Translations under genes and position numbers: made by a program
The notes under the pieces: model-generated
The model's input: only the letters and a program-made list of their open reading frames with translations
Told to the model about the DNA's origin: nothing
Database searches by the model: none
Source of the DNA: Psychrobacter cryohalolentis K5
Lineage (GTDB): Bacteria; Pseudomonadota; Gammaproteobacteria; Pseudomonadales; Moraxellaceae
Assembly: GCF_000013905.1 (NCBI RefSeq)
Contig: NC_007969.1
Coordinates: forward strand, 630,001 to 662,000
Direction: 5' to 3'
Length of the DNA: 32,000 nucleotides
Part shown: one piece after another, positions 19,562 to 29,704 of the stretch
Layout of the letters: each line of letters begins with the position of its first letter
Numbering within the stretch: position 1 is the stretch's first letter

Positions 19562-20509
19562 ATGACGACTGATCAATCATCACGTAGCCTTGAAAAAAAC
19601 AATCTTGCAAAGGGCAGTCTGGTCACTGATAAAGTGATGAATGACGGTTTGATCAAAGAGCCCTTATTACAAGATAGCGCTGCCACTCAACCGCCCTTTG
19701 TGGATGAGCATGATTTCGATATTCGCTTGGCGGATAATGAGAACTATGATGGGCTGACGTTCGAGGTGATTGAAGCGGAAGTCGCTGAAGGTAAGCGGGT
19801 AGTCAGTCGCGGTGTTTATTTAGCGCCCAACTTGATCACCACTTTATCGCTGCTGTCAGGCTTTTATTCTATTTTAGCCAGTACCCAAGGTGAGTTCTAT
19901 AAAGCCTCTTTAGCGATTTTCTTATCGGCTATTTTGGATGGTGCAGATGGTCGGGTAGCGCGTATGTTAAATGCGCAAAGCCCCTTTGGTGAGCAGTATG
20001 ATTCGCTTGCCGATATGTTAGCTTTTGGTGTCGCACCGGCAATCTTAATTTATAGCTTTGCTTTGCAGCCGTTGGGTCGCATTGGATTGGGCTGTGCTTT
20101 TGTCTTTACTGCCTGTGCTGCCTTCCGTCTAGCACGTTTTAACGTTCAGATTGGTGAGGTTGATAAAAAATACTTTGTTGGTTTGGCCAGTCCGCTTGCC
20201 GCTATTTTGGTCACAGCGGCTGTTATGGTTGCCGTTGATCACAATCAATGGATCGGACAATACGATACGCTTGTGATGTTTTTATTTGCTGCTTGGGTCG
20301 TTATTTGCGGTTTGCTTATGGTTAGCAATGTCAAATACTATAGCTTCAAAGAGTTTGATAAGAAGAAAGTCCCTTTCGTGGTGCTTATCGTTGGTGTATT
20401 GGTCATGAGTATCGTGTTATATGATATTCCAGTCGGCATTTTAGCGATTGGTGTTATTTATGCCTTGTCAGGTATTGTTAGCACCTTACAAGCCAAAGCG
20501 ACCAGTTAA
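19562..20509 (+). CDS. pssA: CDP-diacylglycerol--serine O-phosphatidyltransferase
   Basis: CDP-alcohol phosphatidyltransferase motif DGRVARMLNAQSPFGEQYDSLAD (DGxxARx8Gx3Dx3D) with multiple TM helices. I chose ATG 19562, 7 nt after AAGGA. The ORF-track start at 19517 would overlap rlmJ. Confidence 0.85.
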   Translation: MTTDQSSRSLEKNNLAKGSLVTDKVMNDGLIKEPLLQDSAATQPPFVDEHDFDIRLADNENYDGLTFEVIEAEVAEGKRVVSRGVYLAPNLITTLSLLSGFYSILASTQGEFYKASLAIFLSAILDGADGRVARMLNAQSPFGEQYDSLADMLAFGVAPAILIYSFALQPLGRIGLGCAFVFTACAAFRLARFNVQIGEVDKKYFVGLASPLAAILVTAAVMVAVDHNQWIGQYDTLVMFLFAAWVVICGLLMVSNVKYYSFKEFDKKKVPFVVLIVGVLVMSIVLYDIPVGILAIGVIYALSGIVSTLQAKATS

Positions 20510-20547
20510 TACTATAGCTTTTTATAGTATTAACTTAAGAAACGCAA

Positions 20548-20579
20548 AAAAACCGCTTATTTTTTAATAGGCGGTTTTT
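20548..20579 (+). terminator. Rho-independent terminator after pssA
   Basis: AAAAAAACCGCTTAT-tttttа-like loop-ATAGGCGGTTTTT: the stem ACCGCTTAT (20552-20560) pairs with ATAGGCGGT (20567-20575) with one G-U pair, followed by a T-run. Confidence 0.6.
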
Positions 20580-20791
20580 ATTTGCGTGCTAGTTTTTGAT
20601 TCTATTGGGCACTGAAATATAGCTCTGATAGAGATAAGCACAACAATGGAAAAGTTAAAATAAAACAACACAAATAGCTATTGATTGGGTTCAATATTAA
20701 AGCCTTATACAATGCTATTGTATGCAATCTATATAAAGTTTATACGATGAGCCTTCCTATAACGCCATTTGATAACTAAGCCTAGGTTATT

Positions 20792-21343
20792 ATGCTGAAC
20801 TTACCTATTTTGAATCGCCTATTACCTGTTTCAAGGACCTCAAACAATTTGTTGAGAGGTTTGATGGCAAGCGCTTTATTTTCATTGTCACTTATTTCAG
20901 TCTCTACACATGCCACTACTAGTAATTCAGTAAGTACAATATCTCGTGCTGAAGCTGCCAATCCAGCTAATTTTAAGCATCTAAATATCAATGGTAGTGC
21001 AGTAACTTCCGCATCAGCACCGTGCTCTATTAAAAAAGGGCTGATTGCTTGTGGTCTTGAAAAGCTTAAACTAATCAATAGCAGTATTAACGAAGTAGAT
21101 GCGGATTATGATTTGGCACAAGCTTTTTACTATCCATCAAAATCGCAGCCTAAGACAGCGGTTGTTGTCATTATCCGTTCTGGTCTCATGGATGATAGTG
21201 TGAGTGCAGAACGTTACCGCATTAGTTTTACCTTAAAAGGCAAGCCGTCTGATTTAAATTGGCAATGGGTGCAGTATGGGGTGCAATATCAATGTGTTCG
21301 CGGTAATAAAGTAGGGAAATGGACGAAAAGTCTTTGTCCTTAA
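20792..21343 (+). CDS. Hypothetical secreted protein (signal peptide, 4 Cys)
   Basis: 183-aa ORF with a signal-like segment (RGLMASALFSLSLISVSTHA/TT). The mature part has two Cys pairs. I recognise no family. Coding status is supported only by ORF length and the signal peptide. Confidence 0.45.
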   Translation: MLNLPILNRLLPVSRTSNNLLRGLMASALFSLSLISVSTHATTSNSVSTISRAEAANPANFKHLNINGSAVTSASAPCSIKKGLIACGLEKLKLINSSINEVDADYDLAQAFYYPSKSQPKTAVVVIIRSGLMDDSVSAERYRISFTLKGKPSDLNWQWVQYGVQYQCVRGNKVGKWTKSLCP

Positions 21344-21409
21344 TGGAATATTGCATTGAAAGCCAAGCCTAGTATTTTTAACCAAGTAAAAATAAACCCT
21401 AATAATCTC

Positions 21410-21437
21410 TTGACCCCCTATAAAAACAGCGTATACT
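21410..21437 (+). promoter_or_regulatory. rrn promoter P1 (sigma-70 type)
   Basis: TTGACC-16 nt-TATACT with a GC-rich discriminator (GCCACCC) and an AT-rich upstream (UP-like) tract. Confidence 0.6.
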
Positions 21438-21544
21438 GCCACCCAGTCGGAGAGGAAGGCAGGTTGGAGTGGTTTATCGCTTAGAGAGTTTAGCCAACCG
21501 AAAAAATTACTTTTAAGTTAACTGAAATTAAAATAATTTACTTC

Positions 21545-21572
21545 TTGACTTACTAATTAAAGCGTCTATAAT
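21545..21572 (+). promoter_or_regulatory. rrn promoter P2 (sigma-70 type)
   Basis: TTGACT-16 nt-TATAAT with discriminator ACGCACC and an AT-rich upstream tract. Confidence 0.65.
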
Positions 21573-21663
21573 ACGCACCTCATTAAGACGAACCGGAAGT
21601 AGCTACTGTGTGATTACACAATAACTAACCAGTTAACTTAAAGAAACAAATTAAGAAAAGAAG

Positions 21664-21691
21664 TTGACAGACTATTAAAACATGATATGAT
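21664..21691 (+). promoter_or_regulatory. rrn promoter P3 (sigma-70 type)
   Basis: TTGACA-16 nt-TATGAT followed by GGTCAGC. Confidence 0.55.
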
Positions 21692-22002
21692 GGTCAGCTC
21701 GCTAAATAGGATAAGCCAGATTGGTTTAGCATATTTAGTAAGAATACTCTTACTGGACGACAGTTAGAGACATTATTTAAAAGCATAACTAAAGAACAAC
21801 TTGTGTGGATTTTTGCTGATTCAGAATGTTAAAAAATAAAGTTGGTTGACTATCTTTTCGATAGAATTCTAACTATAAAAATTATCATTTAAGACAGTAA
21901 AAAAACTCAAAGTTAATTCATTACGAACATAATTTTTAGCGATTTTGCCAGATTAGATGAGCCAAGTTTAGAAGTCTCTTTAAAGGACTTCATAGCAAGA
22001 TT

Positions 22003-27206: not shown

Positions 27207-27321
27207 TGCTGACGACAATAGCACGATGGAACCACCTGATCCCTTCCCGAACTCAGAAGTGAAACATCGTCGCGCCAATGGTAGTGTGGTTCGCCCATGT
27301 GAGAGTAGGTCATCGTCAGCT
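27207..27321 (+). rRNA. rrf: 5S ribosomal RNA
   Basis: TGCTGACGAC...CCGAACTCAGAAGTGAAAC...GGTAGTGTGG...GAGAGTAGGTCATCGTCAGC, with terminal helix GCTGACGA/TCGTCAGC. Ends are accurate to about +/-3 nt. Confidence 0.93.
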
Positions 27322-27335
27322 CTCTATTCTGAAAT

Positions 27336-27370
27336 ATCCCCCGACTAGTTATCTAGGCGGGGGATTTTCT
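27336..27370 (+). terminator. rrn operon rho-independent terminator
   Basis: ATCCCCCG-a-CTAG-ttat-CTAG-g-CGGGGGAT is followed by TTTTCTTT. It is a strong GC stem 15 nt after the 5S gene. Confidence 0.85.
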
Positions 27371-27485
27371 TTGCCTGACGTTTTGTTCCGTGCCTTAGAA
27401 CCTAATTAATTTAGATTGTTGAAACGTGTTATTGATGATAGATTTCAGGAATAATAAGTTATTAGGTCTTTTTCTAAGGATGAGT

Positions 27486-28502
27486 ATGATTGAAGTTAAA
27501 ATACCTCAAAATTTATCTCTTACCAATGCGTTAAATTTCTGTAATCGCTTGTGGGATTTAGATGATTCAGATAAATATGCTTTTGATTTTGTTAACTTGG
27601 AGTTTATTGAACCATTTACAATGGCATATGTTGCTAATGAGTTGAAACGATTTAGACAAACTAAGATAGAAAGTGAATTTGTAGCCTTGAATCATCAACA
27701 TAAAACATACGCTGCACATATGGGTTTTTTTAAAGCTTTTGGGCTTGATTGTGGAAATAAGCCTGGTCAGGCAGCTGGTAGTAGTACTTATCTGCCTTTA
27801 ACTATACTTAATGTTGCTGAACTTAAAAAAGAAGCTGCTGATGCATATGATCATGTTGGAAATGTGATTGAATCTAAATCAGAAGATATTGCGAAAATAT
27901 TAACTCGTCAAGAAGAAGGTGATCTGGTTGATACTCTTACTTTTTCTATTAGAGAGATAATTAGAAATATCGTTGAGCACTCTGATTCTAAAGTAATCGA
28001 ATATTGCGCACAATATTGGCCAACTAAAAATATAGTTGAATTAGCTATTCTAGATACTGGTAATGGAATTATGAAAGGGTTATCTACTAACCCCCATTTG
28101 ATTATCAAAGACGAGAGGGATGCTTTGCATTTAGCTATGTTACCAGGAGTATCTGGTAAAATGTATAAAGGTGTCAAAAAGCGAAGAGATGATGAGTGGC
28201 AAAACTCTGGATTTGGTCTTTATATGACAAGTAGGATTTGTAGAAATGGTGGCGATTTCTTTATAGTAAGCAATGATAAAAGTATCTTTTTGGATAGTAA
28301 GTCAAAGCGAGACATCGAATGTAATTATAGAGGAACAGCTTTAAGACTTCGTATAGATACTAGTCGAATATCTACCTATAGCGATATGCTTGCCCAGTAT
28401 CGTAAAGAAGGTTTTGAGGCTGCTAAAAGATTCTCCGGTAAAGATGCAGTTGAGCCATCCATTGCATCTACTATGTTAGCTAGAGATTTTAAAGAAAATT
28501 AA
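27486..28502 (+). CDS. GHKL-superfamily (histidine-kinase-like, RsbW/SpoIIAB-type) ATPase with an N-terminal STAS-like region; function unknown
   Basis: Bergerat-fold motifs appear in the correct order and spacing. The N box is REIIRNIVEH (nt 27951-27980). G1 is ILDTGNGI (Asp at nt 28053). The lid segment is LPGVSGK. G2 is NSGFGLYM (Gly at nt 28209). There is no HisKA/DHp His box, no TM segment and no receiver domain. The N-terminal ~130 aa contain FDFVNLEFIEPFTMAYVANELKRF, which resembles the beta3-alpha2 region of STAS / anti-sigma antagonist domains. I chose ATG 27486, 5 nt after TAAGGA. In-frame alternatives are ATG 27480, ATG 27435 and GTG 27426. GC is low (~32%). Confidence 0.8.
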   Translation: MIEVKIPQNLSLTNALNFCNRLWDLDDSDKYAFDFVNLEFIEPFTMAYVANELKRFRQTKIESEFVALNHQHKTYAAHMGFFKAFGLDCGNKPGQAAGSSTYLPLTILNVAELKKEAADAYDHVGNVIESKSEDIAKILTRQEEGDLVDTLTFSIREIIRNIVEHSDSKVIEYCAQYWPTKNIVELAILDTGNGIMKGLSTNPHLIIKDERDALHLAMLPGVSGKMYKGVKKRRDDEWQNSGFGLYMTSRICRNGGDFFIVSNDKSIFLDSKSKRDIECNYRGTALRLRIDTSRISTYSDMLAQYRKEGFEAAKRFSGKDAVEPSIASTMLARDFKEN

Positions 28503-28582
28503 TAGGCTAATTGAGCGGAACTTTTACCGTATGCTTGGTTTTATCATTTTATAGTTGCTTAATAGAATATCAGGGTCTTAAT

Positions 28583-29161
28583 ATGAGTAAATTAATTAAC
28601 CAAATTTCTATCGGTTGTGCAGTGAATGCTGCAATCATAAATGATGTAATGACCAAAGAAAAAGGAACCTTCAACGATTCATGCATAGAAGTGCCCAAAA
28701 AACATAATATAATCTCTCCCGAGCCTAATATGGCATGGCCTTTTCAAAATGCATCTTGGGAGGCATACAAACTTTATTGCATGATTGTTGTTCCCAAAGA
28801 ACTATATAAACTAGCTAAGGATGATAAATATTATTTGGACTTGGTTAAAGAAGATGTAATGCGTAACTTTACTATTAAAAAACAAGAAAAATCTTTTCAA
28901 GAATCAGCGCTATATCACTTTAATTCTTTACGTAACTCAATATCGCACGTCAATTATTCCATTACAGATGATGGATCTTTTGTAATGTGGGATCATAAAT
29001 ATAGACAGGAAGCTGAAGAGCTTTGGCATTGGCACATTGAAATCAATAAAAGTGATATGGACTTATTCCTTGGCGAAATTAGTAGACACATTTTTAATTT
29101 GTATAATGAAATAGAGCGAGGGCTTCGTGATTCAAATACTTATGCCATTATAACTTCATAG
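28583..29161 (+). CDS. Hypothetical protein with an RNxxxH (HEPN-type) motif; putative RNase effector
   Basis: 192-aa ORF on the same strand, 80 nt after gene A, with the same low GC (~35%). The motif LRNSISH (nt 28931-28948) lies in the C-terminal half inside a predicted helical context (ESALYHFNSLRNSISHVNY). This fits the R-N-x3-H form of the HEPN Rx4-6H catalytic motif. I recognise no other family. ATG 28583 follows a weak AGGG SD. An in-frame TTG at 28511 would add a hydrophobic 24-aa N-terminus. Confidence 0.7.
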   Translation: MSKLINQISIGCAVNAAIINDVMTKEKGTFNDSCIEVPKKHNIISPEPNMAWPFQNASWEAYKLYCMIVVPKELYKLAKDDKYYLDLVKEDVMRNFTIKKQEKSFQESALYHFNSLRNSISHVNYSITDDGSFVMWDHKYRQEAEELWHWHIEINKSDMDLFLGEISRHIFNLYNEIERGLRDSNTYAIITS

Positions 29162-29293
29162 TAGGTGAACCCCTTTCCTAAAAGTAGAAAAACTAAAATC
29201 TTACGTTGCAACCAACAAATCTGAAGTACTTATCATCTCCGAATATCTTATTCAAAACCTTTTAAAAAATTGTAGCCTATCAAAGAGAACCCT

Positions 29294-29704
29294 ATGACAA
29301 CTTCAAAAGTAACCTATCAAGGTGATCTGCGCACTACCGCTATTCATTTGCAGTCAAACAACCAAATCATTACCGATGCACCGACTGACAATCAAGGTAA
29401 GGGTGAGGCGTTTTCACCGACTGATTTATTGGCGACCAGCTTAGCCAGTTGTATGCTCACTATTATCGGTATCAAAGCTCGCGATATGGAAATCGATATT
29501 GCAGGCACTACCGCTGAAGTAACTAAAATCATGGCAGCTGATCCAAGACGTGTTAGTGAAGTACATGTCACGATTACTTTTAATCAGGAGTTAGATGATA
29601 AAACGCAAAAAATATTCTATAACACCGCGCTCACGTGTCCGGTTGCGAAAAGCATTCATCCTGATATTATTCAAAAATTGATTATTAATTCTAAAAGCTA
29701 TTGA
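29294..29704 (+). CDS. OsmC/Ohr-family peroxiredoxin-like protein
   Basis: 136 aa with the two conserved Cys contexts of the OsmC family (SPTDLLATSLASCML and ALTCPVAKS). Confidence 0.8.
   Translation: MTTSKVTYQGDLRTTAIHLQSNNQIITDAPTDNQGKGEAFSPTDLLATSLASCMLTIIGIKARDMEIDIAGTTAEVTKIMAADPRRVSEVHVTITFNQELDDKTQKIFYNTALTCPVAKSIHPDIIQKLIINSKSY

Follow-up and report, generated by a model that had tools for sequence, protein, structure and literature searches.

A VapK-like kinase homologue and an exchangeable HEPN-type neighbour gene downstream of an rRNA operon of Psychrobacter cryohalolentis K5

A class of STAS-GHKL kinases has recently been described that senses DNA damage in bacteria and, by way of a dedicated STAS substrate in each case, switches on either immune operons, as in CapKS, or a PIN toxin, as in VapKSC (PMC13373217). 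In both CapK and VapK, a STAS domain is fused to a GHKL kinase domain of the SpoIIAB type, and both kinases are activated by single-stranded DNA (ssDNA), which arises when phages infect the cell or when DNA is damaged (Chambers et al., EMBO J 2026, PMC13373217). The ssDNA-activated CapK phosphorylates CapS, a repressor composed of STAS and winged helix-turn-helix (wHTH) domains, and regulates adjacent immune operons; VapK was inferred to phosphorylate the STAS antitoxin VapS, which leads to the release of the PIN toxin VapC, and VapKSC protects against a phage (PMC13373217). Herein, an islet of two genes, termed A and B, is analysed in a stretch of 32,000 nucleotides from P. cryohalolentis K5 (NC_007969.1, positions 630,001 to 662,000), which will be called the window. 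The two genes run in the same direction (+) between the terminator of an rrn operon and osmC, and their products resemble a VapK/CapK-type kinase and a HEPN-family protein, respectively.

An earlier note, made from the sequence alone, had put the islet forward as a candidate undescribed defence module. The reading that is favoured here, although tentatively and with slightly less than even confidence, is that A is a modular kinase sensor whose swappable HEPN effector is encoded by the next gene, an arrangement that would be similar to VapKSC without its antitoxin.

Gene A and the STAS-GHKL kinases

In profile comparison and in structural modelling, the product of gene A is a homologue of the VapK-like STAS-GHKL kinases, because it is matched to them by hhalign and because its N-box, G1 and G2 motifs are invariant. 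The A-family profile was compared with single kinase sequences, among which the VapK sequence was taken from a supplementary model of PMC13373217. It was aligned with a kinase of a Streptococcus agalactiae prophage with a probability of 98.4% (E=8e-15) over 266 columns and both domains, with a Deinococcus kinase from a kinase-STAS-PIN operon with a probability of 97.3%, and with the experimentally studied Escherichia VapK (E. sp. E4736) with a probability of 92.6% (E=4.5e-7, 219 columns), while the alignment with CapK (76%, 52 columns) covered the N-box-to-G1 region only. The N-terminal domain of the VapK-like kinases matches Pfam STAS, and these kinases align with A over the full length. Two weak tblastn matches of A were also VapK-type loci, namely Deinococcus plasmid P5 (kinase - DUF4325 STAS - PIN) and the S. 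agalactiae prophage (kinase - DUF4325 STAS). In the latter (L146 3507-4696), the kinase and DUF4325 STAS pair is placed directly after a lysin gene, and no PIN gene is present.

The AlphaFold2 (AF2) model of A, which was built on 45 homologues, reached a predicted local distance difference test (pLDDT) score of 87. For the first ~100 residues, a Foldseek search of the PDB retrieved STAS domains, including those of SLC26A7 (probability 0.92), RsbV-like TM1442, RsbS and SpoIIAA; within this STAS-like domain, E42-P43-F44 is invariant, and T45, which lies where the second helix starts, is kept in 41 of the 45 homologues. For residues ~145-296, the best Foldseek match was the anti-sigma-factor kinase SpoIIAB (1l0o_A, E=7e-4), and the only Pfam match in A was HATPase_c_2 (E=1e-3). 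The ATP-binding residues N161, D190, G192, G194, G242 and G244 are invariant across the 45 sequences, and the GHKL domain carries a family signature, C-A-Q-Y-W-P-(S/T)-(K/R), with T and K in A itself. These features suggest that A would phosphorylate proteins at Ser or Thr residues, in the manner of the anti-sigma-factor kinase SpoIIAB. The NCBIfam scan of A and B gave nothing meaningful, and a PDB sequence search with the profiles of both proteins returned nothing usable.

The earlier note had recognized a Bergerat core in A, which was borne out by the N-box, the G1 box (DTGNG) and the G2 box, all present and invariant in the 45 homologues. It had also argued that A is no two-component sensor, and this view holds: Pfam and NCBIfam scans and the AF2 model revealed no HisKA domain, no transmembrane (TM) segment and no helix-turn-helix (HTH) domain in A, and the window contains no response regulator or receiver-domain gene. 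A two-component histidine kinase was accordingly rejected because a HisKA domain is lacking, and the segment preceding the GHKL domain is STAS-like. An ATPase of the MORC/paraMORC or Hsp90 type was rejected as well, since HATPase_c_2 was the only match, an S5 domain was not seen in the AF2 model and the best structure was SpoIIAB. The analogy with sacsin, which the note had drawn, turned out to be a poor one, because the GHKL domain of A resembles SpoIIAB and not Hsp90.

No STAS or DUF4325 substrate gene lies next to A, and B itself has no STAS or DUF4325 match in Pfam. Among ~58 Pfam-scanned neighbours of A homologues, the number of STAS or DUF4325 genes was likewise zero, while the Streptococcus and Deinococcus controls do match DUF4325. 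Within a superfamily that has itself been described recently, the A family represents a large branch with a conserved tail of its own but without the STAS substrate partner that is otherwise defining. This C-terminal tail was modelled with low confidence (pLDDT 53-59), and its residues S325, A327, S328, L331 and F335 are invariant in the 45 homologues; S328 is retained even in tandem paralogues that are 29-54% identical to A. The tail could serve as a built-in substrate or as a docking motif. Tandem pairs of A-family genes were observed at three loci (L088 2406-4670, L130 2878-5032 and L027 5971-7811), where both copies keep the N-box, G1 and G2 boxes and the S-x-A-S-x-M-L-x-x-D-F tail. The transfer of ssDNA-binding residues from CapK and VapK to A was tried and found unreliable, as the position of VapK F54 is variable in the family and CapK W68 is not aligned to an aromatic residue.

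The A family comprises 615 clusters at 50% identity (E<=1e-30) and is almost always a stand-alone protein of ~340 residues. Homologues 78-85% identical to A are found in Marinomonas, Agarivorans, Lacimicrobium, Aliikangiella, Aeromonas, Methylomonas and Vibrio, others that are 41-45% identical reside on plasmids, and more distant members occur in phages. In addition, A matches phrog_3364, which is of unknown function (E=1.5e-32), as well as a protein of a Coprococcus phage at 36% identity and 92% coverage, and prophage copies exist. The scattering of homologues across genera and plasmids points to horizontal transfer.

In the A loci collected (44 from genomes, 80 from metagenomes and 3 from plasmids), the neighbours are heterogeneous, and 92 of the 127 co-directional adjacent genes are BLAST singletons. 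The defence-type neighbours include type I and type III methyltransferases, AAA_13 ATPases, DEAD helicases, YgjP, DUF4238 and DUF2971 proteins and an HNH-like nuclease. Membrane proteins, which were considered as possible TM effectors, are not enriched beside A (21% vs 28% in controls). At some loci, A stands without any possible partner, namely at nusB-[A]-thiL, gyrB-[A] and lepA-[A]; at the first of these, in Hydromonas duriensis (L015 5427-8054), a lone A-family gene constitutes a one-gene insertion into a housekeeping operon.

Another of these contexts is DISARM. In Chloroflexota-type contigs (L035, L036, L041 and L133), the end of the A homologue lies within -3 to +12 nt of the drmA start. 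The A homologue adjoins or overlaps the start of drmA (E ~1e-290) in L035 (5986-12383), L036 (21-6396) and L041 (5986-12361), all of which have drmB after drmA, and drmMI is found upstream in L035; in L133 (626-5377), a large DrmA-like helicase begins 12 nt after the A homologue. PADLOC assigned no named system to A and B together, with A matching the N-terminal part of one DrmA model and B giving a weak LmuC match (E=0.019). In that DrmA model, PDLC02567, positions 62-272 of 1750 are A-like, and the kinase module is, as judged from this model, fused to DrmA in some genomes, which explains the match of A. A GHKL or kinase module at drmA goes unmentioned in the DISARM literature searched, and no paper was found that links CapK/VapK-type kinases to HEPN proteins or a GHKL module to DrmA, or that describes the A branch.

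The resemblance to CapK raises the question of whether A controls expression, that is, whether it regulates the transcription of B, perhaps together with osmC, upon DNA damage, or acts at RNA polymerase in the manner of an anti-sigma factor. Such a role would be in keeping with the regulation of adjacent immune operons by CapK and with the kinase domain of A being closest to the anti-sigma factor SpoIIAB. In two longer family members, P0341 (455 aa) and P0347 (397 aa), a PcrA/UvrD Tudor domain (PF21196) is appended at the C-terminus; P0341 reaches 28.7 bits, where the gathering score is 23.9, and P0347 matches with E=1.5e-3. The PcrA/UvrD Tudor domain is an RNA-polymerase-binding module, and its fusion hints that an A-family kinase may act at RNA polymerase. 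However, this fusion is rare (2 of the 10 long members examined), neither a CapS-like STAS-wHTH repressor nor an HTH in A was identified, and the similarity of A to CapK is weaker than that to the VapK-like kinases, so that expression control is regarded as improbable.

Gene B and the variable slot behind gene A

The product of gene B matches Pfam PF18736 with E=1.4e-5 and 25.3 bits, just below the gathering score of 26.6. A database protein identical to B (P0121, 192 aa) and 22 other B homologues all have precomputed PF18736 assignments, and the UniRef name is 'pEK499-p136 HEPN domain-containing'. The subfamily is small, with 23 clusters at 90% identity, and a tblastn search of plasmids and phages with B gave 0 matches. 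Around the catalytic Rx4H motif, residues F113, S115, R117, N118, S121 and H122 are invariant in 13 homologues. On these grounds B probably belongs, as a newly found representative, to a HEPN family that is already catalogued, and it is a predicted RNase.

The region that contains B is exchanged among related genomes. In related Psychrobacter contigs, the arrangement of 5S rRNA and A is kept (A 85-96% identical), and the sequence diverges after the stop codon of A. In blastn, L054, L143 and L144 match the window up to 28502-28505 and again from 29277, and L140-142 match it up to 28497; where osmC follows, the homology resumes 17 nt before it. Three mutually unrelated genes were found to occupy this slot, all of them in the orientation of A and each with an RNxxxH motif, while A is 85-100% identical across the alleles. 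The first is B, with RNSISH and a gap of 80 nt (the window and L134-136); the second encodes a 224-aa protein with F-G-D-L-R-N-S-I-Q-H after a 30-nt gap (L140-142); and the third encodes a 242-aa protein with R-N-Y-F-H-H after a gap of 109-115 nt (L054, L143, L144 and L151-156). An 'empty' rrn-osmC site was not encountered in relatives by exact-protein look-ups, and every contig found has A and a cargo gene. In some Psychrobacter genomes, a transposase gene (a faint match to Transposase_mut) is located just upstream of A on the opposite strand (L151 1756-2703; L153 214-861), so that the left flank of the islet is variable too.

The 224-aa protein (L140 1229-1903, with relatives at L148 4001-4678 and L149 4001-4669) represents a family of at least 951 clusters, which has no Pfam assignment and shares an invariant L-R-N-x-x-Q-H-F. 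Some of its members are named 'HEPN AbiU2-like' or 'HEPN domain-containing' in UniRef, and hhalign of B against this family gave similarity at the level of the motif only (E=0.001-0.002). Elsewhere, the family is encountered in defence islands without A, near Schlafen-like, SocA/Panacea, Mrr, SNIPE, SIR2 and HerA genes. The 242-aa protein has a weak HEPN_Cthe2314 match over the motif (E=0.037), and further candidates beside A homologues (L066/L068 and L069) were recognized by the motif only; in pairwise hhalign among the putative HEPN partners, the 242-aa, L066 and L069 proteins were not confirmed as HEPN. Outside Psychrobacter, in Lacimicrobium, the gene that directly precedes an A homologue of 82% identity encodes a Swt1-like HEPN protein, whose match (E=1e-10) exceeds the gathering score. 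Another close allele, in which A is 84% identical, has an AAA_13-type ATPase gene upstream, an HNH-like gene downstream and no HEPN gene. Taken over the collected loci, 16 of the 103 co-directional genes that adjoin A have an R[ND]x2-3H motif, compared with 22 of 416 genes located beyond 1 kb (Fisher p=0.001). This count is soft, since three of those 16 motifs belong to the GHKL N-boxes in tandem paralogues and since related loci are included.

The rrn operon has the gene order 16S, tRNA-tRNA, 23S and 5S, with 5S as its last gene ending at 27321 (Table 1). The best start of gene A is the ATG at 27486, which yields a 338-aa product ending with the stop at 28502; a P. cryohalolentis hypothetical protein of the same length (P0002, 338 aa) is 100% identical, and a longer open reading frame (ORF) from a GTG at 27426 was discarded for want of homologue support. 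Proteins identical to A and to B map to P. cryohalolentis CP022043.2 at ~2.42 Mb. No terminator was predicted in the A-B gap by the terminator scan. The promoter scan gave no more sites than in shuffled sequence and is therefore uninformative on a separate promoter for B, and a search for att-like direct repeats or inverted repeats around the islet returned short chance matches only. The GC content is 0.338 for A (0.21 at third codon positions, GC3), 0.328 for B and 0.332 for the islet, whereas 90 windows of 1 kb outside the rrn operon and the islet average 0.421 (sd 0.032, minimum 0.361), and 0 of the 90 reach down to 0.335. The islet is foreign in composition, and A and B look horizontally acquired. 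Another AT-rich stretch, at 20400-22000 upstream of the 16S gene (GC 0.30-0.39 in 400-nt windows), probably contains the rrn promoter and leader region.

Table 1. Coordinates of the islet, its left flank and the domains and motifs of its products (positions in the window)
Feature	Position	Strand	Basis
5S rRNA, rrn operon 3' end	27208-27321		
rrn terminator-like hairpin, left islet edge	27354..27377	+	terminator scan
Gene A, 338-aa STAS-GHKL kinase homologue (VapK/CapK-like), without STAS substrate partner	27486..28502	+	ORF listing, AF2, Foldseek, hhalign
A residues 1-110, STAS-like domain	27486..27815	+	Foldseek, alignment to VapK-like kinases, conservation
A residues ~145-296, GHKL (Bergerat) kinase domain	27918..28373	+	Pfam HATPase_c_2, invariant motifs, Foldseek
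A N-box R156-E-x-x-R-N161-x-x-E-H165	27951-27980	+	invariant in 45 homologues
A G1 box D190-T-G-N-G194	28053-28067	+	invariant in 45 homologues
A G2 box G242-x-G-L	28209-28220	+	invariant in 45 homologues
A residues 321-338, low-confidence C-terminal tail E-P-S-x-A-S-T-M-L-A-R-D-F	28446..28499	+	conservation, AF2
Variable slot, replaced by unrelated sequence in related Psychrobacter genomes	28503..29276	+	blastn breakpoints
Gene B, 192-aa probable HEPN-family protein (pEK499_p136, PF18736), predicted metal-independent RNase	28583..29161	+	Pfam, database annotation
B HEPN Rx4H catalytic motif R117-N-S-I-S-H122	28931..28948	+	sequence and 13-homologue conservation

Downstream of B, osmC starts at 29294 and a catalase gene lies further on, and this neighbourhood, together with the combination of STAS and a SpoIIAB-type kinase that embodies the logic of general stress partner-switching, would fit a housekeeping role, with A as a partner-switching stress regulator tied to the osmC and catalase genes and B as an inactive HEPN relic. 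The atypical GC and the GC3 of the islet speak against it, as do the scattered homologues of A with their variable, often defence-related contexts and the invariant catalytic motif of B; moreover, no sigma factor or PP2C phosphatase gene is adjacent to A among the ORFs of the window. This explanation is disfavoured and is held to be very improbable.

A possible sensor and effector, or separate genes at a hotspot

According to the sensor-effector reading, the islet would be a small, horizontally acquired defence-type module of two parts, with A as the sensor or switch and B, a HEPN RNase, as the effector. A signal of infection or damage would cause A to phosphorylate a target with ATP, and the phospho-acceptor may be either B itself, in which the invariant S115 and S121 flank the catalytic R117 and H122, or the C-terminal tail of A. 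Phosphorylation would change the RNase activity of B and result in the arrest of the infected cell. The direction of control could run either way, in that A could activate the toxin or hold it off as MNT does for HEPN. In such a scheme, A would be a promiscuous module, like the hyper-promiscuous regulator domains of toxin-antitoxin systems, and the adjacent gene would supply its effector. A coupling of A and B is favoured by their location on the same strand, the 80-nt gap, the absence of a predicted terminator between them and their equally low GC. The assignment of sensor and effector draws on the three-fold occupancy of the slot by HEPN-like genes, their co-orientation with A, the fusion or adjacency to DISARM genes and the VapKSC precedent of a gated RNase.

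A fixed, conserved pair of A and B is refuted. The B profile found 0 B homologues in 47 plasmid and genome A loci and in 80 metagenome A loci, and the pair was found in P. cryohalolentis alone among ~125 A loci. Likewise, B homologues 51-72% identical to B occur in three other genomic contexts (five loci, L048 and L050-L053) without A, where their neighbours are a Fic gene, DUF6156 genes or unknown genes. As A and B are each found without the other, an obligate two-gene system is excluded. The earlier note had proposed a conserved undescribed pair, and it is this part of its argument that fails, since the homologues are not co-conserved as neighbours. Its description of the islet itself was confirmed by the ORF listing and the GC windows with respect to coordinates, 80-nt spacing, low GC and shared direction, and its view of both genes as foreign-looking and of a defence or toxin type is supported. 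The RNxxxH motif that it had read in B is genuine (RNSISH, with R, N, S121 and H invariant in 13 homologues), and B is indeed a probable HEPN protein; its impression that B belongs to no recognisable family has to be corrected, as B is annotated as a member of the catalogued PF18736, and A is likewise homologous to the VapK/CapK kinases. The profile and structure searches that the note had suggested placed A with VapK/CapK rather than with ordinary two-component kinases, and placed B in a HEPN family by a profile match just short of the gathering score; Foldseek with B retrieved no HEPN structure. Finally, the idea of an NTPase switch with a nuclease effector does not survive as a fixed pair; in the looser form of a kinase with an interchangeable HEPN effector, it is kept alive by the Psychrobacter slot and by the Swt1-type HEPN of Lacimicrobium.

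Besides the scarcity of the pair, several observations weigh against a coupling of kinase and effector. No STAS or DUF4325 substrate is adjacent to A, so the only mechanism proven for the kinase superfamily is not directly transferable. Residue F40 of A, which is aligned to the ssDNA-sensing F54 of VapK, varies within the family, with phenylalanine in 9 of 45 sequences, and ssDNA as the signal for A is therefore an analogy only. The A genes without a possible partner at nusB-thiL, gyrB and lepA indicate that A can act alone or in trans, and since the B homologues and the 224-aa HEPN family are mostly found without A, neither HEPN family needs the kinase. The predicted fold of B did not lead to any HEPN structure in Foldseek, the HEPN identity of the 242-aa, L066 and L069 partners is read from a short motif only, and kinase activity, toxicity and phage protection are all predictions for this locus, which would be of interest to specialists in defence systems.

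The main rival explanation, which is a quite serious possibility, is that A and B are two independent single-gene defence or toxin genes sharing a hotspot. A would then be an autonomous kinase that works by itself or on targets that are unlinked or belong to the host, B would be an autonomous HEPN abortive-infection gene, and the slot after A would be a recombination-prone cargo site that is anchored by the conserved 3' end of A and the osmC flank. The missing co-conservation of A and B would follow naturally from this arrangement, and the same can be said of the solitary A genes at nusB-thiL and after gyrB or lepA, of the 224-aa family in classical defence islands without A, of the singletons that make up 92 of the 127 neighbours of A, and of the close allele with AAA_13 and HNH-like flanks and no HEPN gene. 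It accounts less well for the slot itself, in which 3 of 3 occupants after the closest A genes carry RNxxxH, share the orientation of A and start 30-115 nt from its stop, which is unlikely for random cargo. Nor would it have predicted a HEPN gene adjoining A in an unrelated genus (Lacimicrobium), and there is the precedent of the same kinase superfamily controlling an RNase toxin.

If the reading of A as a kinase sensor with an interchangeable effector were extended to the whole family, the latter would be a partner-less VapK/CapK branch, a one-component, plug-in infection sensor in which the tail replaces the STAS substrate and which gates an adjacent HEPN RNase, DrmA or another nuclease; in this general form the proposal is rather unlikely. 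The A family is large and widely transferred, occurs on plasmids and in prophages, and in some genomes is physically joined to DISARM; a STAS partner, however, is missing, and the family has its own conserved tail. Should A gate neighbouring HEPN RNases or DrmA, bacterial immunity would make more general use of kinase sensing as a plug-in than is now known, phosphorylation would join the known modes of control of HEPN toxins, and the unexplained N-terminal module of some DrmA proteins would gain a function. To our knowledge, phosphorylation has not been described as a control of HEPN. If A and B are merely neighbours, the locus would still be a clean natural example of a defence hotspot with allelic cargo that abuts the 3' end of an rrn operon.

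Comparison with known systems

The islet has several features in common with VapKSC: A has the STAS and SpoIIAB-like GHKL architecture of VapK with homology over both domains, an RNase-type toxin gene is adjacent, and both are found in mobile or defence contexts and in prophages. The islet differs in that it has no VapS-like STAS (DUF4325) gene, its predicted toxin is a HEPN protein and not a PIN VapC, and osmC follows B. The kinase differs too: in A, the STAS domain is followed by an insertion, the ATP lid is longer, the C-A-Q-Y-W-P-(S/T)-(K/R) signature is present, and a C-terminal extension of ~45 residues includes a conserved tail that is absent from VapK and CapK. Its partner gene is not conserved, and in the A family the position that corresponds to F54 of VapK varies. 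With CapK/CapS, the locus has in common a STAS-GHKL kinase beside immune genes, often flanked by restriction-modification (R-M) genes (PMC13373217), as A homologues lie beside R-M and DISARM genes. However, the HTH at the N-terminus of CapK and the CapS gene that invariably follows it (PMC13373217) have no counterpart here, as A starts at the STAS-like domain and no CapS-like gene is present.

On the side of the putative effector, B matches the profile of the pEK499_p136 HEPN family (PF18736), just short of the gathering score, and keeps the Rx4H motif. Anantharaman et al. (2013; PMC3710099) placed this family in defence contexts, with R-M, ART/Macro and Pgl genes in its neighbourhood, and reported no association of the family with a GHKL kinase. 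GHKL and HEPN modules are combined in paraMORC-Ymh, which is found in an R-M or conflict-system context, and in sacsin, but these are fusions with a GHKL domain of the MORC type (with S5 domain) or the Hsp90 type, whereas A is a separate gene, has no S5 domain and is SpoIIAB-like. The HEPN-MNT systems share with the proposed mechanism the concept of a HEPN RNase that is controlled through covalent modification by a neighbouring enzyme. MNT controls the HEPN toxin by AMPylation; its modifier is a nucleotidyltransferase and not a kinase, the window contains no MNT gene, and a modification of B by A would be an analogy to it.

The comparison extends to DISARM class 1 (DrmA/DrmB/DrmMI), where an A homologue adjoins drmA in Chloroflexota-type loci and one DrmA model has an A-like N-terminal region. 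The window differs in having no drmA, drmB (DUF1998) or methylase gene, and what the DISARM link shows is just that the kinase module has been re-used by other defence systems.

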